This document shows positions 2,113 to 23,396 of a stretch of 64,000 bases of DNA, piece by piece. A model generated the notes under the pieces. It saw nothing but the letters and a program-made list of their open reading frames with translations. It did not search any database and was not told the origin of the DNA. Both the position numbers and the translations under genes were made by a program. Numbering within the stretch: the stretch's first letter is position 1; every line of letters starts with the position of its first letter. This DNA is from an uncultured virus (IMG/VR IMGVR_UViG_3300031565_000011) (lineage: Duplodnaviria; Heunggongvirae; Uroviricota; Caudoviricetes), in IMG/VR virus record IMGVR_UViG_3300031565_000011. One strand, 5' to 3'.

Positions 2113-2303
2113 TACTTCTTCCTTTTCTTCTTTGCCATGAATCGAAATCGCGAATGGTCGCCCCTTTGATTTATTTTTATATCATGAAATGAAAACATAG
2201 TTCGTTTAGCTAACCCCGCTCTAATGGCTCCATCAGTCCATCGTTTTAGGACACTGGTTTTAGAGTCAGCGAACCCAGCATGTCCTGCCAAGAATATTTT
2301 CAT
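2112..2303 (-). CDS. Small basic protein, MKI(F/Y)LA family copy A (putative N-terminal segment of a TGT/DpdA barrel)
   Basis: MKIFLAG...RAGLAKRTMFSFH. It overlaps the neighbouring genes' start/stop codons and is paralogous to 3545-3709 and 3706-3879. Confidence 0.7.
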   Translation of the reverse strand: MKIFLAGHAGFADSKTSVLKRWTDGAIRAGLAKRTMFSFHDIKINQRGDHSRFRFMAKKKRKK

Positions 2304-2995
2304 AGTCCAGTCTCATAGTCCGCGACGAATTCTTCCCATCCTTTTTCACGCTGAATACAGGCCGAACAATTTCCACAGCCATACCCCCAAGTATGTCCTG
2401 TTTTATGGTCACCGTTATAACAAGTATGGGTCTCCTCGATAATTCTTCCGAGTACTCCTAATTCCTGGGCAAGTAAAAAGATTTCAGCCTTGGAAAGAAA
2501 CATCAGTGGTGTTTCAAATCTAATGTCTTTAGCAGAACCAAGATTTGTAATTGTCTGGAGTCCTTTTATAAAATTATCTCGACAGTCGGGGAATCCTTGA
2601 AAGTCAGTTTGGCAAACTCCAATAATGACCGCCTTTGCCTCGACAAATTGAGCGTAGGCATGGGCTATCGTAAGGAAAAGTTGATTCCTATTCGGGACAA
2701 ATACTGAAGATATTCCCTCGTCTTCTTTATTAGAAATTGCTTCGTCGTCGTCATCAGCGACTAAAAGATTGTCCATAATTCCTGCCATGAAAGCCAAATC
2801 AATATATTTTAATCGTATATCATGTGTCTTACAGATCATCCGGGCATACCGTATTTCGATATCGTGTTTTTGCCCGTAGTTAAATCCAAGCGGATAAACT
2901 GGATGAAATCTTTTCATTGCCCAATATAGGCAGGTTGTTGAATCTTGTCCGCCCGAAAATAGGACAACTGCTGGCTCTACTTTATCGTTACTCAT
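2300..2995 (-). CDS. queC: 7-cyano-7-deazaguanine synthase
   Basis: SGGQDS PP-loop, YGQKH, VPNRN, PDCR, and zinc cysteines TCYNG...CGNCSAC. Confidence 0.95.
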   Translation of the reverse strand: MSNDKVEPAVVLFSGGQDSTTCLYWAMKRFHPVYPLGFNYGQKHDIEIRYARMICKTHDIRLKYIDLAFMAGIMDNLLVADDDDEAISNKEDEGISSVFVPNRNQLFLTIAHAYAQFVEAKAVIIGVCQTDFQGFPDCRDNFIKGLQTITNLGSAKDIRFETPLMFLSKAEIFLLAQELGVLGRIIEETHTCYNGDHKTGHTWGYGCGNCSACIQREKGWEEFVADYETGL

Positions 2996-3548
2996 TGTTC
3001 TCTACTCCTACCTTCTTGAACTTATATCTGTATCTTTGAAATGGGCTGTACTCTGGATTTATCAGGGCAAACATTTGCCATAGAATTTTAGGATTAACTA
3101 TCTCCGTATATCGGTCAATCTGTTGTAACCAATAAACATTTTCGTCATCATCAAAAGATATATTACTAATTATCCACTTCAAAAGTACCCGGGCGGATGG
3201 TTTCCATTTTAACAAATGAACATATACCTTATCTCTATCTTCTGAGGTCAAGATTAACTGTAAAGTATGGAATATATTGAAAGTAACATCCCTACTATAG
3301 TAATGGATTTTATCAAAGTATTTTATGAGGTCATTTATTCTATCGCTGTTCGATATCCGACAAATAATATCGTTTCCGCTCTTCTGTAAAATCTTTTTCA
3401 GTTTATCTTTGTTTAACCTTGAACCGTCAAGGTCGATCGTTAGTTTGTTTTCGCAAAGCGAGCCCGAACAAAAACGATTAACTGACAGGGTTTCTATCAG
3501 CGATCCACCCACCGGTGGAGCGGAATAACCTACATACAATACCTTCAT
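2988..3548 (-). CDS. Hypothetical protein (possibly a second, non-ATPase clamp-loader subunit)
   Basis: Coupled 186-aa ORF. The function is inferred only from size and context. Confidence 0.55.
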   Translation of the reverse strand: MKVLYVGYSAPPVGGSLIETLSVNRFCSGSLCENKLTIDLDGSRLNKDKLKKILQKSGNDIICRISNSDRINDLIKYFDKIHYYSRDVTFNIFHTLQLILTSEDRDKVYVHLLKWKPSARVLLKWIISNISFDDDENVYWLQQIDRYTEIVNPKILWQMFALINPEYSPFQRYRYKFKKVGVENNE

Positions 3549-3709
3549 TGTTCTTTCCTAATCTTACGCTGCTGCTTTTTGAAAAATGGACGGAAGTCTT
3601 TCTTGAATCGTTGGTCGTTATGGAAGGACGTCAATATATTTATATATCTCGAACGCTTCATGCATCCGGTTTGATCTTTAGTCGGCCATATAGCAAGGTA
3701 TATCTTCAT
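3545..3709 (-). CDS. Small basic protein, MKI(F/Y)LA family copy B
   Basis: Not in the ORF track (54 aa): MKIYLAIWPTKDQTGCMKRSRYINILTSFHNDQRFKKDFRPFFKKQQRKIRKEQ. ATGA overlaps at both ends. Confidence 0.7.
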   Translation of the reverse strand: MKIYLAIWPTKDQTGCMKRSRYINILTSFHNDQRFKKDFRPFFKKQQRKIRKEQ

Positions 3710-3879
3710 TTCCTTTTCCCCTTTATTGAAACCTTGAACCGTTTCCTTTCCAGCTTTTGGTTTTTCAAAGTGAAGTAACTAAACATTCGATTCATCCCAG
3801 CCCGCGAGATGAATCGTTCTTGCTTCTGTGCGTGTCCCTCAACGCATCCTGGGCTCGACGCTAAAAATATCTTTTTCAT
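3706..3879 (-). CDS. Small basic protein, MKI(F/Y)LA family copy C
   Basis: Not in the ORF track (57 aa): MKKIFLASSPGCVEGHAQKQERFISRAGMNRMFSYFTLKNQKLERKRFKVSIKGKRK. It starts 9 nt after the DpdA-like stop. Confidence 0.7.
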   Translation of the reverse strand: MKKIFLASSPGCVEGHAQKQERFISRAGMNRMFSYFTLKNQKLERKRFKVSIKGKRK

Positions 3880-3888
3880 ATCTTATCT

Positions 3889-4686
3889 CTACGCCAGTTT
3901 TTTATTAGACATGAAAGTACTTTTTTGCCCAGCGAGTTCTTGTTCAAGTTCGCGGAAATAGATTGCACAAACTTCGTCGCGATATTTATATGAACCCTTA
4001 CCTACACCAAGATTCCTGAAACGAAATCGCATTTCATCCCCAAAGTATTGCCCGCCAATTCTTTTCAGATAGTCAATCAACTTGATTCGGTTTTTAGGCG
4101 GCAACCTTTTATAGTAATGATGGACTCCAGGACGTCTGTCAGAAACAGCAATGATGGGTGAGTCAGCATCCAGACCGGCTCCGCCGAATAACCTTCTTGG
4201 TATCAGAATCCCACCATGCCTTGCTACCTGTATCCAGGTTGATGAGTCAACTGAAAACCAAGGAAACATCGTCATTAATCGAATACTAGTACAGCCGAAT
4301 CCATGAACTCGGATATTATCAAGCAATCCCTTTTTTTCAAGATAACTGAAACATTTCATCAACAAAAATATCTTTTCTTTCATCTTCATGGCGCCACTAA
4401 CCATTCCTCCGATCCCGATAAATTCAAACTCATTGCTAATTCTTTGGAACCAATAGTCGCTATAATCTTCCAAGTGGTATACTGGTATAGGATTCAATCC
4501 TTTTTTATTCATATACTTAGTATTCTTATAACTAGCGACCGGATCGCCGATCACATCAAGAGCAGCATAGTAGTCAATGACGTCCTGGTATTTTTTAATA
4601 AACCGGATGTATTCGTCTATCTCGATGACCGCTCCCTGCGAAAAGACTGAATATGCCCCAGAGTCTAAAAATATTGAATACTGCAT
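3889..4686 (-). CDS. dpdA: DpdA-like 7-deazaguanine DNA transglycosylase (TGT fold), starting directly at the LDSGA motif
   Basis: Motifs IFLDSGAYS, LDVIGD, IPVYH, IGIGG, VHGFG and SVDSSTW. It lies within the folE/queCDE cluster. Confidence 0.8.
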   Translation of the reverse strand: MQYSIFLDSGAYSVFSQGAVIEIDEYIRFIKKYQDVIDYYAALDVIGDPVASYKNTKYMNKKGLNPIPVYHLEDYSDYWFQRISNEFEFIGIGGMVSGAMKMKEKIFLLMKCFSYLEKKGLLDNIRVHGFGCTSIRLMTMFPWFSVDSSTWIQVARHGGILIPRRLFGGAGLDADSPIIAVSDRRPGVHHYYKRLPPKNRIKLIDYLKRIGGQYFGDEMRFRFRNLGVGKGSYKYRDEVCAIYFRELEQELAGQKSTFMSNKKLA

Positions 4687-5243
4687 TATAGACCTCCGGT
4701 GAAACAGAGTCGCTGAAATTCTTCTTTAACATGCTGGTCCATGAAGGCCCCACGTAAGGCGGAAGTCTTCATAAGCACTTCCTGTCTTTCAACCCCTCGA
4801 GCAGTCATACAGAAATGTTGAGCTACTATAACTACTCCACACCCTACCGGATTTAAATGTTCCGCCATGGCATTGGCAATCTCTCCAGTAAGTCGCTCTT
4901 GTATTTGTAAACGTCTTGAAAAGCAATCAACCAGTCTAACTAATTTAGAGGCGCCCACTACTTTTTCCTTTGGAATATAGGCGACGTGAGCCTTCCCGAA
5001 AAAGGGAAGCATGTGATGCTCGCAAGTGGAATAAAATTCAATATCGGTCATTAAAATCATCTGGTCATAGTTTCCTGTTTCTGAAAACGTGACGCCCAGG
5101 ATTTTCGCTGGGTCTTGGTTATAACCACCAAATAGTTTATCCCAACTTCTTACTACGCGTTCGGGAGTACTAATTAACCCCTCTCGGTTTGGGTCTTCGC
5201 CTATACGCAAAAGTAATTCCCGAACTATTTGTTGACTGGACAT
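4686..5243 (-). CDS. folE: GTP cyclohydrolase I
   Basis: GEDPNREGL..TP.RV, STCEHHMLPF, RRLQIQERLT and HFCMTARGV. Confidence 0.96.
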   Translation of the reverse strand: MSSQQIVRELLLRIGEDPNREGLISTPERVVRSWDKLFGGYNQDPAKILGVTFSETGNYDQMILMTDIEFYSTCEHHMLPFFGKAHVAYIPKEKVVGASKLVRLVDCFSRRLQIQERLTGEIANAMAEHLNPVGCGVVIVAQHFCMTARGVERQEVLMKTSALRGAFMDQHVKEEFQRLCFTGGL

Positions 5244-5244
5244 A

Positions 5245-5808
5245 TCATCTGACTCCTAACAATTTGTGAAGTTGAACGCTCAGTCGCCAATCACCGATAT
5301 TTTCTTTTACTGCCTTAATTGTCTCCTCAATATTCATCTGCCCGTCTCGTTCAATGGGTTGTAAAAATCTATACTGTACATCGAATGAATTAAAATATTT
5401 TACTAGGTCCTGACCATGATACAAAACCTTAAGTTCATTTCCCTTGAATAGTTTAGTTTCCCCCTTAGGCGAAATGGTTATCCAATGAAAAGGAATTTTC
5501 GTTAAAATTGTTCCATTGGTTTCGATTGCGACCCAATAAAAATGGTCCTGTAAAATATTAACTAAAAGATCTAATTCCTGCAGAAGTGGTTCACCGCCGG
5601 TGAGTATTACCCGTCTTTGTTTCGGATAGCTCTCTTGTAATAGTTTTAAGATTTCATTCTCATTAAAATGCTCATTGGTGGAATGATCCGTGTCGCAAAA
5701 CTCACAAGCCATATTGCAACCAGAAAATCTAATAAAAATAGCTGGCATTCCAGTATGTAGCCCCTCCCCTTGAATTGAAAAGAATATCTCTGTAATTTTA
5801 TAAATCAC
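5245..5808 (-). CDS. queE: 7-carboxy-7-deazaguanine synthase (radical SAM)
   Basis: EIFFSIQGEG, CNMACEFCDT, LTGGEP, IETNGT and RLSVQLHK. Confidence 0.95.
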   Translation of the reverse strand: MIYKITEIFFSIQGEGLHTGMPAIFIRFSGCNMACEFCDTDHSTNEHFNENEILKLLQESYPKQRRVILTGGEPLLQELDLLVNILQDHFYWVAIETNGTILTKIPFHWITISPKGETKLFKGNELKVLYHGQDLVKYFNSFDVQYRFLQPIERDGQMNIEETIKAVKENIGDWRLSVQLHKLLGVR

Positions 5809-6152
5809 TAATCTTCCCTTTCGAATATCGCCACACTCCCGTCATTCTCTTCGACCTCTAGCTTAACGCACTTAGGAATGGCATAGCATAAGAACTCGGC
5901 GATGTTTTCCGCGGTTGTCGGGACTTTATGTCCTACCTCGGCGAAAACATCGTTGATGTTATAGTGATCGAGCCTTTCGCAAAGTCTTTTTATTTCTGCG
6001 AAATCGACCACCATTCCCTGCTCGTCAAGTTCCTTTGACTGGCAGGTAGCAGTTATCCTCCAGTTATGGCCGTGAAGCCTCCTGCACTTCCCTGGGTATT
6101 CTGGAAGATAATGGGCAGAAGAAATCGTAAGCGTTTTCTTTACTGTGAACAT
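5808..6152 (-). CDS. queD: 6-carboxytetrahydropterin synthase
   Basis: SAHYL...KCRRLHGHNW, GMVVDF, LDH and TAENIA. Confidence 0.95.
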   Translation of the reverse strand: MFTVKKTLTISSAHYLPEYPGKCRRLHGHNWRITATCQSKELDEQGMVVDFAEIKRLCERLDHYNINDVFAEVGHKVPTTAENIAEFLCYAIPKCVKLEVEENDGSVAIFERED

Positions 6153-6424: not shown

Positions 6425-7168
6425 TTATGTTTCCTCTCTGGTCATTATTAGGTACAGCGAGTTATATTTCGGACCGAAGCGGATCAACATAGGTGGGTCA
6501 GGCTCAACGAATATCTTAACTTCCCCGCTTACTGTACTAAATATCTCCTTTACCCCATGACCAAAACAAGCAATCATCGCCTTCCTTATATCCTGTTTTT
6601 CTGGAGTAACCTTAGTCACGAAAGTATTCCGCCCTTTCTTCACGCGAAGGCGAATTGATTTGTCACGATCGACCTCGATGTAGTAGATATGTTCATCCAA
6701 GATATCAGCATCGCCGACCAACGACGCCAACTCCTGCGAATCGAGAGTAAAACGGTTAGTTTTATATTTGAGTTTCAAGGTAGGGGTCTTGACGAAATCT
6801 TTCCCCACCGATATTGCCCCCGCCTTTGAATAACTGTCGATCGCCTTTTTATCCACCGCTTCGAAAGTCCCGATTTTATTTTTTCGCTTTACTCTTATCA
6901 ACTTCTTGTCAGTCGAGATCTCCACGGTCCCATCGAATCGAGAAAGAATCTTTAGAAACACGGCAATATTCCCGAGAACCAACTCGCCAGCCGAGATAAC
7001 CTTTGCTTCCTTGGCGATGTGAAAGTAAATAGACTTTGCGATATCGAGTCCTGTGGCGACTAGCCGGCCTTTTTCTACTGCGATTACGCAGTCAAAGACC
7101 AACCCGTTTAAGTGAACCTTAGATAGAAATTCCTGGAATTCTTTCGCGTCGATTCTAAACTTAGCCAT
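6425..7168 (-). CDS. Putative DNA sliding clamp (PCNA/gp45-like, two-domain size)
   Basis: 247 aa with an internally repeated beta-alpha-beta pattern (F.I.AKEFQEFL / FTLDSQELASLV). It ends in a PCNA-like P.LI......LYLIM.R and is linked to the RFC-like loader and the polymerase. Confidence 0.7.
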   Translation of the reverse strand: MAKFRIDAKEFQEFLSKVHLNGLVFDCVIAVEKGRLVATGLDIAKSIYFHIAKEAKVISAGELVLGNIAVFLKILSRFDGTVEISTDKKLIRVKRKNKIGTFEAVDKKAIDSYSKAGAISVGKDFVKTPTLKLKYKTNRFTLDSQELASLVGDADILDEHIYYIEVDRDKSIRLRVKKGRNTFVTKVTPEKQDIRKAMIACFGHGVKEIFSTVSGEVKIFVEPDPPMLIRFGPKYNSLYLIMTREET

Positions 7169-7682
7169 TGGTATGCCCCCATTCTGCAGACAAAGACTTC
7201 GCGGCCGTCTCTAGTGCGTCAAGTAATTTATTGATTCTGTGCATAGCGTTCGTGTAGATTTCCCTTCGCTCCATGGCGGCGGATTCAAGGTGGCGTTCTT
7301 TCCTAACCATTGAATCCGCTTTGGTTGATGCCATAGTATCCGTTATCTTATCGCCGCTTTCCGCAGCCTTTCTTTTTATTTCAACAAATATCTTTGAACG
7401 CTTCCCCTTTCTATTTCCCTCTGTTCTTAAAAAATCACCTTGAGCCTTTCCAGAATGAACTGCTAAGAATACGTTGAGGGCAGCGAGCTGTACGTGATCC
7501 CTATTAAGTTCGCTTCGTTTATACTTCGATACCATGTCAGCGATTCCAAGCCCGGTATATCTATTTACGATTTTCAGAATACCATGGAGGAATTCGTACT
7601 CGTCAGGCGAGTTCTGGAAAATGCTCCAGTCCACCTTAGTATTCGGCTTCTCGATTAGGCGAGACTTTTTCTTGTCCGACAT
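7161..7682 (-). CDS. Helical protein, possibly a UvsY-like recombination mediator
   Basis: Predominantly helical with a K.TD...... segment reminiscent of UvsY-like proteins. It lies in the same operon as recA. Confidence 0.4.
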   Translation of the reverse strand: MSDKKKSRLIEKPNTKVDWSIFQNSPDEYEFLHGILKIVNRYTGLGIADMVSKYKRSELNRDHVQLAALNVFLAVHSGKAQGDFLRTEGNRKGKRSKIFVEIKRKAAESGDKITDTMASTKADSMVRKERHLESAAMERREIYTNAMHRINKLLDALETAAKSLSAEWGHTNG

Positions 7683-8689
7683 TTCTCGTTCTCCACAAGG
7701 GAATCAATCTTCTTAGTAATGTCAATAATCTTATCCTTGCCCCCTTGACATAGGACTCGATTATTACCCATACTCCGCCCACTAACAAAAATAATACTAT
7801 AAGGTTTCAAAGTCGAAGCGTACCGCTTATCCGCTTCGGCATCTAAGAATATGGTGATACCGCCACGATGATCCTGGACCTTTAGGACCTTCGTTGACTT
7901 GCCTGACATTGGAGTATCTATTTCTATAATAACCCCAGCGACTCCAGCCCGCTCCCACCTATTAAAGTCGGCCAACTGAACTGATGTAATACAATACTGT
8001 TTCATTAAAAAATCTCTTACCTTATCCTCGAAAAAAGGATGTAGTAAAATAAACCCGAAAGCCTCGACTGCATCCTCTACGAAACTCTGCTCAAGATCAA
8101 AAACCTGTTCCTTACGCTGACTATTAAATAACCGTTTTATAGAGTGTCTATCTCCCAGCGCATCGAAGGCCCCTGACTGAATAAGCGATACTATTTTTCC
8201 CTTATGAATCTTTCCACTTATCCGGTCAAGGAAATCGGTAAAAGAAGAGAATGGTCGCTTGGATAGGATCTCCTCGGCGCTTGGCCCTTTTATTCCCTTT
8301 ATTTTGGAGAGCCCGAAACGAATTGCGTGACCTTTGTTTTCCAAGGTGAAGCCGGAGCCTGACTTATTGATGTCGGGAGGAATGACCCGTAACTGATATC
8401 GTCTTGCTTCATTAATATAGTTATATATCTTGTTGAGTTCAGACCCACGTTTCTTATCCTTCTTCACTCCAGTAGCAGTATTAGAAAGTAAACTGGCAAA
8501 GAACTGTCCAGGATAATAGTTCTTGAGATATAGAACCTGGAAAAATAAGAAAGCGTAACTGACAGCGTGGCTATTTGATACACAAATATCATTGGCGTAA
8601 TAATTATGGAAACCACTATCTATTTCTAAATCTAAAGTCTCTTCTTCTCCAATATATGATATATCTACAATTTCTTCAAACTTGTTCAT
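7655..8689 (-). CDS. dnaE: DNA polymerase III alpha C-terminal half, preceded by a 39-aa C-intein
   Basis: IntC (MNKFEEI...HNYYANDICVSN), then SHAVSYA..Q..YLK.YYP..F.ASLL, PPDINKS, IRFGLSKIKG HhH, and a C-terminal OB-like region. Confidence 0.93.
   Translation of the reverse strand: MNKFEEIVDISYIGEEETLDLEIDSGFHNYYANDICVSNSHAVSYAFLFFQVLYLKNYYPGQFFASLLSNTATGVKKDKKRGSELNKIYNYINEARRYQLRVIPPDINKSGSGFTLENKGHAIRFGLSKIKGIKGPSAEEILSKRPFSSFTDFLDRISGKIHKGKIVSLIQSGAFDALGDRHSIKRLFNSQRKEQVFDLEQSFVEDAVEAFGFILLHPFFEDKVRDFLMKQYCITSVQLADFNRWERAGVAGVIIEIDTPMSGKSTKVLKVQDHRGGITIFLDAEADKRYASTLKPYSIIFVSGRSMGNNRVLCQGGKDKIIDITKKIDSLVENEKCRTRKSLA
8573..8689 (-). mobile_element. Split intein C-fragment (IntC)
   Basis: Block F/G pattern ETLDLEIDSGFHNYYANDICVSN with terminal Asn; the +1 residue is Ser (codon 8570-8572). 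Confidence 0.9.
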
Positions 8690-9602
8690 CTGTACCTCCG
8701 TATTTTTTTAACAACAAATCCTTAAACTTCTTTTCATATTTATATGCATCTTGATAAGTCTTTTTATGACACCTTAAACATAAGGTTATGCCATTATCCA
8801 AATCATGCCTATGATTTGGATACTTTGCCTTAGGTTTAATATGATGGGCCTCTACATATTTTTTTTTGCCACAAACAAGACATGTATATAAATCTCTGAA
8901 TAAAATTTGGTCTCTCCATCTTATATCATCCCAAACTATTCTTTTTCTATCTTTTATTCTTTTTAAGTCTCCATCGCCACCTTTAGATATGCTGATTTTT
9001 ATTTTTGTTTTATCAGAATGCTTACATCCTGTATGCCCATCAAAATTTCTTTCCTTAGCGCTTTTAGAAAGGTTCTTTTTATGCTCTTCTGTAAGTCTTT
9101 TGCCCTTCTTTTTATCACTTACCTTTTTTACAGAACTATTAGTTTCCTTGGTTAGTCCCTTATTCCAAGGATCTTTATTATACATAGGATTGTTTTTACC
9201 TAATCTATTACTTGCCATTGTTTTTATTATATTGTTATTATGTTTATTTTTACCTTTATTCCAAACATATGATTTACCAAACTTTCCAAATCTAATATAC
9301 CCACAACAACTATAAGTTAAATATTCACCCGTTATTAAGCATCTTGGAACATCATAGTATTCATCTAAAACTTCAAGTATATTTTTACCATACTTTTCTT
9401 GATAGTAGACGTCTGCAATTTCTGAAATATAAAATACTTTTTTTATAGGACGTTGCATTTTAAGGCGTTTTTTATATCTTTCTGTAGGTATCTTTTTCCA
9501 TGTATAATAATCTTTCTCAAAATTGGCATATAAAACTATAGTTTTCTTTCCAGAATATAGTACCTCATGGATTCCATATTTATCTAATTTTAATTTTTTC
9601 AT
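8676..9602 (-). mobile_element. Free-standing HNH homing endonuclease with NUMOD3 repeats, between the dnaE halves
   Basis: C-terminal CLVC...EAHHIKP...NGITLCLRCH. NUMOD3-like motifs WNKG, GKNNPMY, LTEEHKKNLS and HSDKTKIKIS. Visibly AT-rich and overlapping both dnaE halves. Confidence 0.9.
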
Positions 9603-12078
9603 GCTTTTCTATTGCTACTCCTAGTGACATCATACCATTTTCAGTTAAAACTTCATGGTCTAAGCTTGCTTCTAAAGTTTTCCCTGATTTAGTTTTAATC
9701 CTATAGACCTTTCTTTTACCATTTTTATGCAAACCTTTCACGCGATTAAACTCGTCTTCTTTTGTTGTTTGATTATAGCATAAAACTTTCTCATCATTTC
9801 GTACATCCATTATTTTAATTTTTCCCCTTTTTTCTGTTCTAATATAATGATTTTCTGTAATACATTTATTAAACGAATATTTAGTAAATTCTTTGATAGT
9901 CTTCCAAAGTTGCGAAGCTGATTCGTGATCCATAACTTTATGACTTCGTCTAAAAAATTCATTTTGAAACTTTATTCGTAAACCTTTATCAGTATCAAAT
10001 ATCTTTTTAGCTGCCATTTTTCTAATATTTTCTGCTTCAACCATTGAATAATTAGCAACTTTATTTAATATCTGTATTACCTGTTCTTGGTAAACCAATA
10101 CTCCTCTAGTTTCTTCAAGTATCTCGTTAATATCATCGTTGTCAATCCCCATTCCTTCCTGTGTTATAAACCTTTGAACTGCGCCACTACCAAGCGGACC
10201 TGGACGATTGATAGCATTAAGCGCGGCTATTTCCTGAAAGTTCTTTGGTCCGACCTTTTTTAATAATGAAATAGCAGAATCAGTCTCAAACTGAAACATC
10301 CCGACCGTATGTCCCAGTCGTGCTTCCTTCATTAGTTTTTTATCAGCAAGGTCGATAGTCCATATCTTCTTAGCAAGGCTTTTACCTGTCGTTTCCTTTA
10401 CTAAATCCAAGGTGTCCGAAATAATCGAGCAGGTATTTAATCCCAGTATATCTAATTTAAGCAGCCCTACTTCGCTCAATTCCCTACCCCTTAGTCCCTC
10501 CGAATAGGCCGAGACCACTTGGCCCTTGACTCTTTGAAGTGGACAATATTTGTAAACTGCCTTTGGAGCTATTATCGTTCCGCATGGATGCACTCCGATA
10601 TTCCTGATAAGACCGGATATTTTCTTTGCCAGGTTTATAAGGCTCCGATGTTCCTTCCAGAAATCTTTAAGTCGCCCCGACAAGTTTTTATATGCATCAT
10701 CTATTCCGCCGCTCTTGTATATTTCATCTGCCAACTCATTTATCGGACGAGCGGCCAGTTTGAAAACCCGGCCAATATCACGAATCGCCCCTACTGATCC
10801 GAATGTCCCAAATGTAATAACTCGAGCGACCTTATCATCGCCATATCTTTGTCGAATATAATTAAACACTCGCTCCCTTTTATTTGCATCGAAGTCAAGA
10901 TCAATGTCCGGCATATCACATCTGCTCTCATTTAAAAAACGTTCAAAGATCAGTCCATGCTCTATCGGATCAACCTTGGTAATCCCGAGGACTAATGAAA
11001 CCAGGGAACCAGCAACAGAGCCCCTGGCTGGACCAACAAATATATTATTCTTCTTACACCAGCTAACCAAGTCATCAACAATTAGAAAATAGTCATGGAA
11101 TTTTAGACGTTCTATTACATCGAGTTCACGTTTTAACCGGTTAGCATATTTCTTCTTTTTCATAAAGCCGAGAACCTTGGCCTTGTAAATAACTTCCGAT
11201 GAAAACTCGAAAGGCTCAAGTCCCATGTCCGGTATGTGAAATTTCCCGGTAGGTATTACCAGTGAACATTTTTCTGCTGCTTCCTCGGCGTTACGAATTA
11301 CCTTCCTAAAAGTCTTTTTATCAAGCGCAGTCTTCCAGTCCTTACTTTGTCGCCATATATCCTGGGCAGTCATAAGAGAAAGACTTCGAGCAGTATACCT
11401 TACTTTATCGACCTGGTCAATTGTCAAACGATCACGGACTGCCAGTATAAAATCCTGGATGTAAACGTCGTCTGGACTTACATAGTGCGAGTCGAGGGTA
11501 AGAATAACCTTGACGCCATGCTTTTTTGCCAACTTCAATAACCATCGGTTTACATTGGCTTGTATATCTATTTCGTTAAGTTGAATCTCAACATAAAAAT
11601 CATCCTCAAACCGATCCTTCCAACGCATTATTTCCCTTGCTGCTTCTTCTTCTCTGCCGAATAGTTTTCCAAGTATTCCCCCCATGCAAGCAGTTGAAAC
11701 AATCAATCCGTCACCGTTTTCAAAAACCATCTTAGTAGTAGTCCTTGGTCGATAATAAAAACCATCGACGTGAGCCTCTGAAACAATCTTAAGTAGATTT
11801 CTATATCCATGAATATTTTTTGCTAATAAAACAATATGCCTATACTCTCCCTTTCTTTCAGGCGAATCATCCAAGTACATTTCGGTCCCGACTATCGGGT
11901 TCACTCCCTGTTTTTTACACTCTAAATAAAATTCCAATGTTCCCGATAAAGTTCCGTGATCCGTAATAGCCAATGAAGACATGTCCAACGTCTTAGCCCT
12001 GGTGATCAACGCTTCTATATCAGCGCAGCCATCCAAAACACTGTGGGTTGTATGCTGATGCAGGTTCGTGAAAGTCAT
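9580..12078 (-). CDS. dnaE: DNA polymerase III alpha N-terminal half (PHP + catalytic core), ending in a 94-aa N-intein
   Basis: LHQHT.HS.LDG, ITDHG, GPARGS, PDIDLD, KLDILGL, GMFQFE, GVLVYQEQ, then YSFNK followed by the intein C1. Confidence 0.96.
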   Translation of the reverse strand: MTFTNLHQHTTHSVLDGCADIEALITRAKTLDMSSLAITDHGTLSGTLEFYLECKKQGVNPIVGTEMYLDDSPERKGEYRHIVLLAKNIHGYRNLLKIVSEAHVDGFYYRPRTTTKMVFENGDGLIVSTACMGGILGKLFGREEEAAREIMRWKDRFEDDFYVEIQLNEIDIQANVNRWLLKLAKKHGVKVILTLDSHYVSPDDVYIQDFILAVRDRLTIDQVDKVRYTARSLSLMTAQDIWRQSKDWKTALDKKTFRKVIRNAEEAAEKCSLVIPTGKFHIPDMGLEPFEFSSEVIYKAKVLGFMKKKKYANRLKRELDVIERLKFHDYFLIVDDLVSWCKKNNIFVGPARGSVAGSLVSLVLGITKVDPIEHGLIFERFLNESRCDMPDIDLDFDANKRERVFNYIRQRYGDDKVARVITFGTFGSVGAIRDIGRVFKLAARPINELADEIYKSGGIDDAYKNLSGRLKDFWKEHRSLINLAKKISGLIRNIGVHPCGTIIAPKAVYKYCPLQRVKGQVVSAYSEGLRGRELSEVGLLKLDILGLNTCSIISDTLDLVKETTGKSLAKKIWTIDLADKKLMKEARLGHTVGMFQFETDSAISLLKKVGPKNFQEIAALNAINRPGPLGSGAVQRFITQEGMGIDNDDINEILEETRGVLVYQEQVIQILNKVANYSMVEAENIRKMAAKKIFDTDKGLRIKFQNEFFRRSHKVMDHESASQLWKTIKEFTKYSFNKCITENHYIRTEKRGKIKIMDVRNDEKVLCYNQTTKEDEFNRVKGLHKNGKRKVYRIKTKSGKTLEASLDHEVLTENGMMSLGVAIEKHEKIKIR
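9583..9864 (-). mobile_element. Split intein N-fragment (IntN)
   Basis: Starts CITENH (block A) and contains G.RKVYRIKTKSGKTLEASLDH (block B), followed by a stop codon. Confidence 0.9.
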
Positions 12079-12079
12079 A

Positions 12080-12316
12080 TTAGTTCCCCTTATCCGTCCG
12101 TCTAATTTTACTTGCGATAAATTTCACTGCTTCTGCCTCATCCTCAGTCTTGATTACATTGATAATAGCCAGGACGTCCTCCAATAAAATATACAGCCTG
12201 TGTTTCGGTTTTTCCCCTTTGGCTACAATGTCGATCTCGTCAAGGGATATCCGCCTAAATATCTGCGGATACCTTTTCATAAGCGATTCACCCGGCATTG
12301 CCCGTCTCCTTTTCAA
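12080..12316 (-). CDS. Hypothetical protein
   Basis: Coupled between the sigma factor and dnaE. Confidence 0.55.
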   Translation of the reverse strand: MKRRRAMPGESLMKRYPQIFRRISLDEIDIVAKGEKPKHRLYILLEDVLAIINVIKTEDEAEAVKFIASKIRRTDKGN

Positions 12317-12902
12317 TGAGAAGTTTTAGAAAAGAATAAATTGCGCGACAGCGTCGATATAAACTCGCCATTGAAACTCCCATTTCCTTTGACAACGTTC
12401 TGAACTTCAAATCAGGATCGCGATATATACTCCAATATATTCGCCAATGCTCCTCTGTCAATCGCTCCTTGAATAATCTAAGAAAATCAACTACTAAGAT
12501 TTCATCAATGAAATCCTTTGTGTCTGGAAAGTCGGCCAGCGAAACGCCTTTGTTAAATTCATATTCGGTAAAAGTAATTGTAGGTAATCCAGTCGGCTCG
12601 TGTTCTGTCTGTCTTATTTTTTTAAGTAGTTGACGAAAACGATTCCGAACAGAAATAGTAGCAAGTGTCTTAAATGATGCCCGCTCAGCATCATACATAG
12701 GAATTACACTTGTCGTTATATGTAAAAATCCCTCCTGCATGAGGTCATCGACAGACATATTAGACATAACGTAGGCATATCGTCTCGATAGATATTCGAC
12801 AGTCGGATATATAGCATAATATATTTTTTCAAAAGTGGGCGGTTTGGCGGTCTTCTGGAAACGAAGAACCGCTCGGTCGAGCGCGGTTGTCTTTCGTTTC
12901 AT
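12288..12902 (-). CDS. Phage RNA polymerase sigma-70 family factor
   Basis: Region 2 DDLMQEG...YD.ERASFKT.A...RN, and a C-terminal HTH (RTLSKEMGVSMASLYR). Confidence 0.8.
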   Translation of the reverse strand: MKRKTTALDRAVLRFQKTAKPPTFEKIYYAIYPTVEYLSRRYAYVMSNMSVDDLMQEGFLHITTSVIPMYDAERASFKTLATISVRNRFRQLLKKIRQTEHEPTGLPTITFTEYEFNKGVSLADFPDTKDFIDEILVVDFLRLFKERLTEEHWRIYWSIYRDPDLKFRTLSKEMGVSMASLYRRCRAIYSFLKLLIEKETGNAG

Positions 12903-14294: not shown

Positions 14295-14843
14295 TTAGAA
14301 ATCGTCGTCGTCGTCTTTCTCTTCCTCCTCGTCGTCGTCGTCTTCCTCCTCGTCGTCGTCGTCTTCCTCTTCCTCCTCGTCGTCGTCGTCTTCCTCGAAT
14401 TCCTCGTCGTCGTCGTCCTTGGCCTTCTTTTTCTTCCCTTTTCCCTTGGCCGCAGGTTTTTCCTTCTTTGCTTTCTTTCCCTTTTTCTTCTTGGGCGCTT
14501 CCTCTTCCTCCTCCTCTTCTTCTTCCTCCTCGTCGTCGTCGTCGAATTCCTCGTCGACTTCCTTCTTCTCCTTCTTCCCCTTCCCCTTCTTTTTCTTGCC
14601 CTTCCCCTTGGTCTCGTCGCGCTCAGCCTTGGCTTCCTCCCGGAGTACCTTGACCTTATCGTCAGCGATCCGACGAAGCTCCTGCAGTTTCTTCCGAAGT
14701 TCCGAGAGCACCTTCTTGGCGGTCTGTCCCGCCTTGTAATCGCCCTCGAGCAGGTCGGTGATTTGGTCCCGGACGAAGAGCGCTGCCGTTGCGGCTGATC
14801 CCGCCATGGTCAGAAGTTTTGGTCCCTTCTTTGCCTTTGCCAT
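14295..14843 (-). CDS. Helical protein with alternating K-block and D/E-block tail
   Basis: GAAAGGAAG RBS before MAKAKK; low-complexity charged C-terminal half. Confidence 0.75.
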   Translation of the reverse strand: MAKAKKGPKLLTMAGSAATAALFVRDQITDLLEGDYKAGQTAKKVLSELRKKLQELRRIADDKVKVLREEAKAERDETKGKGKKKKGKGKKEKKEVDEEFDDDDEEEEEEEEEEEAPKKKKGKKAKKEKPAAKGKGKKKKAKDDDDEEFEEDDDDEEEEEDDDDEEEDDDDEEEEKDDDDDF

Positions 14844-14919
14844 CGTTCTTTCTTCCTTTCGCGAAAGTCGGTTGAAAAGAAATGTTGTCAACGATAACCC
14901 GACCCCATCGGAGATCGGG

Positions 14920-21738: not shown

Positions 21739-22791
21739 CTACTCATCCACGGCATCGCAGAACTCCACCTTTTCAGCCCTTGAAAGCGACCGAAAGAACT
21801 GCTTTTGCGAGCAGTCGCAGGGGTCCTTACCCTCCGGAAGATTCACACGATACAGGGTCGTGGAAGGGAACAGGAAATCGACCAGTCTCTGTTCTCCCTT
21901 ATCGCCTCCCTCGTCGGCGTCGAATGCTATATAAACCTCGTCAAAGCAAGTAAGCAAAAGCTCTGCTTGCTCGGACGTTACTGAAGTAGAAAAAGAAGCG
22001 ACACAGGGTATGCCCAATGAAGCCACCTTTAAGCAATCCCAAACTCCCTCAACAAGAACAACTCGATCAGTCTTCCCTTTCAGCTTATCCAAACCGAATA
22101 ACAAAAGACCGGTCGGTGCTTTCTTTGGAAAGAGCTTGTCCGAATTATCCCGAGGATTCTGAGCGAAGAAAGAAAACCAATCTCCTTCCTCATTGCATAT
22201 CGGAACTATTATCCTAAGCAGCTCGCGGTAAAAAGCGAGTCCGATCGAGTAATCCTTAATTATCCGACCCACCCTGACTGGATCGAAATTTCTCGACTTG
22301 TTCCTGACCATATATCGAGCGATGTAAATATCATCCTCAAACATAGAAGGAATAAAGGTTGGCTTAGCCTCTCGTCTCTTTTCAGTTTCGGTCGGTTCAT
22401 TCAGTTCTTCTAATTCCTTTTCAAGTAGACCGATGGAATACATGTCGCCGTCGAACGAGAACTGCTTAAGAGTTGAAATCGCCTGGTTGAATGAACAGGC
22501 CTCCATTGCTCGGATGAATTTAATTACATCCCCGCTCCCGCATTTATAACATTTATAAAAGCCGTTCCAGGGAGTCCCGGGTTCATGACGCATGCCGAAG
22601 GATGGCGAATTATCAGGCCCGCCATGGCCTGGCAAGGGGCACGAGCAGTTTAAGTATGTCCCGTTCGGTTTTAGATTCCGAACATTATAGTGGTCAAGAA
22701 TTCGCTTAACATCAGCCCGCTTCCGAAGCAAACTAACAAAGCTTATCTGCCCCTCTTTTCTCTTTGCGTTTTCCATTGTCGGTCCCAGCAT
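21739..22791 (-). CDS. DNA primase (CHC2 zinc finger + TOPRIM)
   Basis: CPLPGH..D.SPSF, CYKC.SGDVI.F, LVEGVWD and FDADEGG. Confidence 0.93.
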   Translation of the reverse strand: MLGPTMENAKRKEGQISFVSLLRKRADVKRILDHYNVRNLKPNGTYLNCSCPLPGHGGPDNSPSFGMRHEPGTPWNGFYKCYKCGSGDVIKFIRAMEACSFNQAISTLKQFSFDGDMYSIGLLEKELEELNEPTETEKRREAKPTFIPSMFEDDIYIARYMVRNKSRNFDPVRVGRIIKDYSIGLAFYRELLRIIVPICNEEGDWFSFFAQNPRDNSDKLFPKKAPTGLLLFGLDKLKGKTDRVVLVEGVWDCLKVASLGIPCVASFSTSVTSEQAELLLTCFDEVYIAFDADEGGDKGEQRLVDFLFPSTTLYRVNLPEGKDPCDCSQKQFFRSLSRAEKVEFCDAVDE

Positions 22792-23396
22792 TACTTAACC
22801 CCTTTCGCTTCTAATTTCCTGATGTGCTTTCCTATTCTTTGCCAATCCTTCTCGGCTCGCTTTTTAAACTCTGGGTTTCTGGCGCAAGCCGAAGGATGAT
22901 ATGTTACATAAATACGATACTTCCTTTCGCCTTCGTATGCCCATCCGGGGCCCCTATTCTTTTCGACTCCAACCCTGGCAGTCAATGAATTAAGGGCTGT
23001 TCCGCCCAGGAGTATTATTAACCTTGGTTTTAGAATTGATATAGTCTGCTTCATTCTAACCACGCAGCGAATTATCTGTAGTTCATCCGGTTTATTAAAT
23101 CCTCCCGAATCCTTCTTACCTGGATAACACATAGTCGAATTAAAAATAAAGCAATCGTTCCTATCGAATCCAGCTATTTCAAGAAGTTTGTCAAGCATTT
23201 TTCCGGCTCTTCCTATGAATGGTACCCCTGCTTTATTTTCTTCTGGACCTGGCGCTTCGCCAAGTATCATTACTCCTTTACTACACCATCCCTTTCCGAA
23301 GACAATCTTTGTTCTTAGCAGATATAGATCGCAATTTTTACATTTACTATATTTATGTCTAAGTCTATGCAGTTGTCTTTCTTGTTTTGGTGTCAT
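22791..23396 (-). CDS. Uracil-DNA glycosylase family 4 (Fe-S)
   Basis: CKNCDL..R..VFG.G, GEAPG.EE..G.PF.GRAG and TYHPS. Confidence 0.92.
   Translation of the reverse strand: MTPKQERQLHRLRHKYSKCKNCDLYLLRTKIVFGKGWCSKGVMILGEAPGPEENKAGVPFIGRAGKMLDKLLEIAGFDRNDCFIFNSTMCYPGKKDSGGFNKPDELQIIRCVVRMKQTISILKPRLIILLGGTALNSLTARVGVEKNRGPGWAYEGERKYRIYVTYHPSACARNPEFKKRAEKDWQRIGKHIRKLEAKGVK

Follow-up and report, generated by a model that had tools for sequence, protein, structure and literature searches.

A fractured dnaE gene in an uncultured phage, with a putative split intein and a chimeric HNH endonuclease gene between its halves

In a 64,000-nucleotide stretch of an uncultured virus of the Caudoviricetes (IMG/VR record IMGVR_UViG_3300031565_000011), which we refer to as the window, the replicative polymerase gene dnaE is broken into two pieces at positions 7655..12078 of the minus strand. 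Each piece carries what appears to be one half of an intein at the break, and a free-standing gene for an HNH homing endonuclease lies between them. We consider it highly probable that this is a fractured gene as described by Dassa et al. in 2009, in which a split class-1 intein would be removed by protein splicing in trans and the HNH gene would be the selfish driver of the arrangement. The locus adds to a class known since 2009, and its new point is the apparent exchange of the nuclease domain of the endonuclease.

RESULTS

Anatomy of the fractured dnaE locus

Three overlapping open reading frames (ORFs), each in a different frame, make up the locus. Its features, with lengths in amino acids (aa), are as follows.

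9580..12078, minus strand: dnaE-N ORF, 832 aa, reading KYSFNK, then CITENH, and ending in IKIR and a stop codon
9865..12078, minus strand: dnaE N-extein, 738 aa, ending in KYSFNK, with PHP, Pol III alpha core and finger domains (Pfam)
9583..9864, minus strand: IntN, the N-terminal intein half, 94 aa, with Cys1 and a block B of SLDH that includes His70 (homology, alignment)
9580..9582, minus strand: IntN stop codon
8676..9602, minus strand: free-standing HNH homing endonuclease gene, 308 aa plus stop codon (PF01844)
8988..9524, minus strand: N-terminal module of the endonuclease with two NUMOD3-like repeats, residues 27-205 (BLASTP, alignment)
8703..8936, minus strand: HNH nuclease domain of the endonuclease, residues 223-300 (PF01844)
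8695..8699, minus strand: GGAGG, a putative Shine-Dalgarno sequence inside the end of the HNH gene
7655..8689, minus strand: dnaE-C ORF, 344 aa, starting MNKFEE and reading YANDICVSN, then SHAVSY
8573..8689, minus strand: IntC, the C-terminal intein half, 39 aa, with blocks F and G, ending DLEIDSGFHNYYANDICVSN
7655..8572, minus strand: dnaE C-extein, 305 aa plus stop codon, starting SHAVSY, with an HHH_6 domain and an OB-like tail

The first 23 nucleotides (nt) of the HNH ORF are shared with the end of the IntN ORF, stop codon included, and its last 14 nt with the start of dnaE-C, and the GGAGG ends 5 nt upstream of the start codon of dnaE-C and IntC. Pfam assigns PHP, DNA_pol3_alpha and finger domains to the N piece and HHH_6 to the C piece. 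Promoter-like sites (20 against 15.3 expected) and terminator-like sites (3 against 3.4) occur at chance level. A first-pass annotation, made from the letters alone, had described this layout and read it as a fractured dnaE with a naturally split intein and a free-standing HNH gene; the ORF list and the translations bear out every length, motif and overlap that it gave, and its core reading holds in the Pfam, PHROG and alignment results.

Continuity of the exteins

The two pieces meet at one point of the polymerase, as the N piece runs up to position 793 of the PHROG 405 profile and the C piece starts from that position. The closest full-length relative in a library of 1.84 billion proteins, P0171 (1041 aa), is uninterrupted at YSFNK|SHSVAY, where the bar marks the junction; residues 1-738 of the N-extein are 57% identical to its residues 1-739, and the C-extein is 54% identical to its residues 740-1037. 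P0005, which is 62% identical to the C-extein, is likewise uninterrupted, and P0004 (59% identity), the nearest relative among the split C-pieces, begins with IntC. The exteins therefore abut at YSFNK|SH without loss or gain relative to the uninterrupted homologue, and the first-pass claim that joining them restores a conserved FNKSHA motif agrees with the sequence of P0171 as far as FNKSH. The predicted spliced DnaE has 1043 aa.

Two halves of one intein

In searches of the Protein Data Bank (PDB) with phmmer, IntN matched the Ssp DnaB mini-intein 1mi8 (E 5.3e-6), and IntC matched the Npu DnaB intein 4o1r (E 4.1e-5) and gp41-1 (6qaz, E 0.021); the Pfam family Intein_splicing matched IntN at E 2.7e-5. 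The set of class-1 splicing residues is complete, with C1 and H70 in IntN, D20, H28 and N39 in IntC, and S+1 in the C-extein. Their conservation could be followed in viral relatives from a profile-guided scan of IMG/VR, which gave 20 loci, namely 17 relatives (L006-L022), the record of the window itself and two weak matches in another gene. None of the 11 IntN sequences (the window and 10 relatives) departs from C1 or from the block B His, and D20, H28, N33, S38 and N39 of IntC are invariant in 14 sequences, as are Ser+1 and His+2. IntN is basic (net charge +8) and IntC acidic (-9); opposite charges of the two halves are the pattern described for natural split inteins (PMC2677866).

Three of the relatives, L011, L012 and L015, have a contiguous mini-intein at the same site, and in a joint alignment the end of IntN and the start of IntC fall at adjacent columns of these inteins. 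The structural model of L015 (pLDDT 91.9) superposes on 1mi8 with TM 0.85/0.88 and rmsd 1.8, on gp41-1 (6riz) with TM 0.78/0.89 and on the cyanobacterial DnaE split intein 4kl5 with TM 0.80/0.84, and it places the split point in the loop that precedes the long C-terminal strand pair. By homology, residues and alignment, IntN and IntC appear to be the two halves of one intein.

A chimeric endonuclease in a foreign cassette

The HNH domain looks intact. PF01844 matches residues 241-282 at E 4.8e-9 (36.7 bits against a cutoff of 21.4), and the domain carries Cys241/244/275/278, His253-His254, Asn270 and His279. Its fold matched the IscB HNH domain (Z 8.9), EcoKMcrA (Z 8.7) and the phage GVE2 HNH protein (Z 8.2) over residues 223-304; all VIA-align structure matches lie on residues 223-308 and so bear on the nuclease domain and hardly on the N-terminal module. 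Foldseek with the model of the HNH protein gave weak HNH-domain matches only, none at E<=0.001. The model has pLDDT above 90 at residues ~20-80. The first-pass label of HNH/NUMOD3 stands firmly for its first part. For the second, PF07460 reaches 12.7 bits (E 0.12) against a cutoff of 20.4, which is weak; NUMOD3-like repeats are visible at residues 167-179 and 192-204, and many homologues of the protein carry PF07460.

Residues ~27-200 are 42% identical over 180 residues to the N-terminal part of the Vsr-like endonuclease of L013 (BLASTP, E 5e-37), and L009, L016 and P0031 share the same N-terminal similarity. The ORF between the intein halves of the relatives is usually Vsr-like. The intervening ORFs of L006 and L008 match MTES_1575/DUF559 in Pfam, with NUMOD3 as well in L006, and the endonucleases of L009, L013 and L016 align with this type (the C terminus of the L013 protein against the L006 protein, E 2e-14). 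The nuclease is of HNH type in the window phage and in P0030, its closest homologue, which is full-length with 65% identity, and Vsr-like in L009, L013, L016-L019 and P0031. Because the first ~200 residues are homologous to those of Vsr-like endonucleases at the same site, the nuclease domain appears to have been swapped on a kept module: by sequence the protein is a chimera, in which HNH takes the position of the Vsr-like domain of its relatives, and the exchange could have run in either direction. It seems rather likely that a single intein allele of the dnaE site is served by endonucleases that share a module of ~200 residues, presumably for target recognition, and differ in their nuclease domains.

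The cassette of IntN, HNH gene and IntC has a GC content of 28.6%, compared with 40-42% for the exteins and 46% for the window, and the median identity to 18 relatives is 69% for IntC and 23% for the C-extein. Since the cassette is low in GC and IntC is far more conserved than the C-extein, the whole cassette appears to have been acquired horizontally from an AT-rich lineage.

Use of the site among relatives

Of the 17 viral relatives, 13 are split at this site in addition to the three with a contiguous mini-intein, and the upstream DNA of L014 is missing. In the cultured Rhodococcus phage NiceHouse, too, DnaE is interrupted by a contiguous mini-intein, at YSFNK|C...THN|SHAVAY. A profile built from 19 C-pieces retrieved 15,520 library proteins at E<=0.001, and the best 150 representatives fall, by approximate counts, into the following classes.

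52/150: C-pieces starting with IntC (32-66 aa)
36/150: contiguous inteins of 131-460 aa at this site
27/150: internal IntC without an N-junction within the protein
14/150: empty site
21/150: other

FNK|SH of phage DnaE is, as read from these sequences, a heavily used intein site at which every stage of the homing cycle is present. The first-pass annotation had put forward FNK|SH with Ser+1, and a penultimate Ser, as novelties. Neither survives the comparison, as the site is occupied in NiceHouse and in the 52 split and 36 contiguous cases above, and in the set of the best 150 representatives SN|S junctions are the most frequent, with 68 against 38 of HN|S.

Several loci depart from the simple layout. 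In L020 (4665..6986; L021 has the same layout), the reading frame of IntN continues into NUMOD4 and HNH_3 domains before a stop codon, and IntC begins a separate ORF; this looks like an intermediate between a full and a split intein. L010 (6124..6989) and L022 (6487..6938) are split at the same site with no ORF of at least 90 aa between the halves, and their endonuclease gene may have been lost or have decayed. L008 has an additional hydrophobic ORF of 162 aa (6486..6971), which separates its Vsr-like gene from dnaE-C. In L009, L012, L015, L016-L019 and L022, with ORF ends read by eye, dnaE is broken one or two more times upstream by other intein-like halves; endonuclease-like ORFs lie between the halves at these extra breaks, two of them with DUF7487 (Pfam). 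Finally, a 51-residue IntC-like match (38%, E 3e-4) starts a 599-aa non-DnaE ORF in L023 (6641..8437) and L024 (3900..5696), and could represent half of a related intein whose host is a different gene.

A megablast search with the locus against the phage collection gave no match, and searches for related loci with single proteins returned the window's own record only.

Occurrence of the locus in soil metagenomes

The locus is 100% identical to the IMG/VR viral record G001, in which the arrangement is the same, and the phage sequence is present in soil metagenome runs. Contigs from four such runs were aligned to the locus. One 14-kb contig of run X1 covers all of it with 0 differences; the junction of IntN and the HNH gene is bridged by contigs of X3 and X5 (X5 being a run not flagged as a possible source), and that of the HNH gene and IntC by an X3 contig, each with 0 differences. 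Four contigs carried the DnaE-C protein, and five the HNH protein. None of the soil-run contigs aligned to the locus directly joins the two sides of the HNH gene or of the cassette. An apparent joint from 8009 to 9501, with only 20 letters per side, was seen in X1, X3 and X5 in a contig sequenced to ~500x; we give it no weight, because such joints usually stem from other organisms or repeats.

Genomic setting

The window is a phage genome fragment with genes nearly all on the minus strand. It has PHROG matches to tail sheath, baseplate, tape measure and portal proteins, and the host genome of the fractured dnaE is that of a myovirus-like phage. PHROG also identifies a clamp loader, a DnaB-like helicase and a primase, together with a gene cluster of queuosine type, which suggests phage DNA modification. 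A gene for a sigma-70 region 2 protein lies directly upstream of dnaE, and the strand opposite a low-complexity ORF at 14295..14891 carries mirror low-complexity ORFs. These neighbouring features are as follows.

2300..6152, minus strand: queuosine-type/7-deazaguanine cluster (PHROG matches)
2300..2995, minus strand: QueC-like gene
3889..4686, minus strand: queuine tRNA-ribosyltransferase-like gene
4686..5243, minus strand: GTP cyclohydrolase gene
5245..5808, minus strand: QueE-like gene
5808..6152, minus strand: QueD-like gene
12288..12902, minus strand: sigma-70 region 2 protein (Pfam E 2.2e-6; PHROG RNA polymerase sigma factor)
14295..14891, minus strand: 198-aa ORF with a Lys-rich stretch, then long Asp/Glu runs, without a PHROG match

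DISCUSSION

Splicing in trans is, on the sequence evidence, the mechanism that we find best supported for this locus. A class-1 mini-intein would have occupied dnaE at the conserved YSFNK|SH motif, and a free-standing homing endonuclease gene would then have entered the endonuclease loop of the intein, leaving an N-half of 94 aa and a C-half of 39 aa. The three genes would form one operon and be translated separately, after which the basic IntN and the acidic IntC would associate and rebuild the HINT fold. The chemistry is expected to run from a thioester at Cys1 through attack by Ser+1 and cyclisation of Asn39 to an O-to-N shift, with the exteins ligated into a DnaE of the predicted length. 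The HNH protein probably cuts dnaE alleles that lack the cassette, and repair would copy the cassette in.

Several observations weigh against this interpretation. Ser67 stands in block B where Thr is usual, and the residue before the last is Ser38 and not His, which could slow splicing; both states recur in relatives. The scores of 24.4 bits (IntN) and 12.4 bits (IntC) for the full Intein_splicing family PF14890 fall below its cutoff of 35.8, which half-domains cannot attain. Structural support comes from a contiguous relative, L015, which is 47% (IntN) and 68% (IntC) identical to the halves in the window. The only GGAG near the HNH start codon is distant, at 15 nt upstream, and leaves the expression level of the endonuclease uncertain. 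The class counts for the site are approximate, since the proteins were classified by simple motif patterns, with 21 left as 'other' and 27 without an N-junction. Lastly, no RNA run is listed as containing the locus.

The substitutions in block B and at the penultimate position are also what would be expected if the intein halves merely docked, holding two DnaE chains together as a two-chain polymerase without splicing. We regard this as unlikely. All class-1 splicing residues are present and do not vary across diverged relatives, and identical residues occur in the contiguous alleles of L011, L012, L015 and NiceHouse, which must splice because the intein interrupts the conserved FNKSH motif; SN|S is, moreover, the commonest junction of the family. 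It is very unlikely that the insertion of the endonuclease gene inactivated dnaE and that the locus is decaying while the phage uses another polymerase. A weak polymerase/exonuclease-like ORF at 22791..23396 could be read in that way, but both pieces are full-length, with intact domains and their own start codons (that of dnaE-C with GGAGG), the split layout recurs in 52 diverged representative clusters and in 13 of the 17 related viral loci, and a clamp loader, a helicase and a primase are also encoded in the window.

The remaining alternatives concern the RNA and the assembly. Homing endonuclease genes often sit in group I introns, and this general pattern would allow the intervening gene to be removed from the RNA, or skipped by the ribosome, to give a contiguous intein. 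Such removal is improbable in the extreme, given that no Rfam family, and hence no group I intron model, matched 7000..12600 at E<=1. Furthermore, the IntN stop codon and the IntC start codon lie exactly where the contiguous relatives run on, the three ORFs overlap in three frames, and relatives have the same layout with unrelated endonuclease genes. As for an artefact of assembly or sequencing, the sequence is known from metagenomic contigs only; the identity to G001, the X1 contig that covers the locus, the X3 and X5 contigs that bridge its junctions without differences, and the recurrence of the DnaE-C and HNH proteins on separate contigs reduce its probability to a negligible level.

Read as a gene whose product is spliced in trans, the locus closely resembles published cases. 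Dassa et al. described 26 fractured loci in eight host genes, three of them in dnaE (DnaE-1, DnaE-2 and DnaE-3), with intervening genes of GIY-YIG or Vsr-like type; HNH genes were unseen, though it was stated that they 'could fracture genes' (PMC2677866). The first-pass statement that fractured phage genes with an intervening endonuclease are known is confirmed by that publication. As in those loci, the ORFs in the window are adjacent and on the same strand, with IntN at the end of the N-ORF, IntC at the start of the C-ORF and an endonuclease gene separating the two; a phage-like origin and opposite charges of the halves are further points in common. The C-inteins of DnaE-2 and DnaE-3 also end in Ser-Asn (supplement of PMC2677866, whose intein sequences were compared with the window by eye only), another reason why the penultimate Ser is no novelty. 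The difference lies in the intervening gene, which is HNH in the window and GIY-YIG or Vsr-like in theirs; FNK|SH may or may not be among the three sites at which their dnaE genes are interrupted. An HNH gene with a split intein, offered as new in the first-pass annotation, has a published precedent in the PolB of Pseudomonas jumbo phage MIJ3, where a putative split intein has a free-standing HNH-family homing endonuclease ORF between the polymerase genes (PMC6892783). Compared by description, that case differs in that the host gene is a family B polymerase and the intein starts with Ser and ends His-Asn|Ser.

The DnaE of NiceHouse (MT521992) has the same insertion site and a homologous N-half (tblastn to query residue 808), and differs in its contiguous intein, the absence of an endonuclease gene and a penultimate His. 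Intein hosts in actinophages include DNA polymerase III alpha, and the invasion of inteins by free-standing endonucleases has been discussed for them (10.1101/2025.01.02.630785). The closest solved relatives by sequence are the Ssp and Npu DnaB mini-inteins and gp41-1 (1mi8, 4o1r, 6qaz/6riz), a relation that also holds by fold for L015. Like the window intein, gp41-1 comes from phages, is naturally split and has Ser+1 (supplement of PMC2677866); the DnaB inteins and gp41-1 have helicases as hosts and a penultimate His, and their identity is ~27-30% in structural alignments. In Aeh1 nrdA-a/mobE/nrdA-b, a replication-related phage gene is likewise split by a free-standing HNH gene within one operon, but there is no intein and the two chains assemble without splicing (PMC2677866). 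The cyanobacterial split DnaE intein of Ssp and Npu shares the host protein and, judged by the L015 model, the fold; it has Cys+1 where the window has Ser+1, its halves lie at separate loci, as the first-pass annotation had correctly noted (PMC2677866), and the similarity of its sequence to IntN is weak (E 0.3-0.4). Searches of the literature for this intein allele, for a FNKSH/DnaE intein motif or for nuclease exchange found nothing, which is weak evidence of absence. The cyanobacterial insertion site presumably lies a few residues upstream of the one described here, although its junction strings were not found in PMC3585056.

The locus provides a clean fractured replicative polymerase gene that is, by its sequence, probably active, and it lends support to the gene-breaking model published earlier. 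At FNK|SH of phage DnaE, alleles that are empty, full-length, mini or split occur side by side, and the chimeric endonuclease would be direct sequence evidence that a nuclease domain can be exchanged while the other modules are kept. If this is true, replacement of the nuclease in place on a conserved targeting module offers a natural matched pair with which to see the effect of cleavage chemistry on homing. The window intein would be one more candidate natural split intein for protein engineering, and more than 50 diverged natural split inteins with Ser-Asn|Ser are a possible source of orthogonal trans-splicing pairs.

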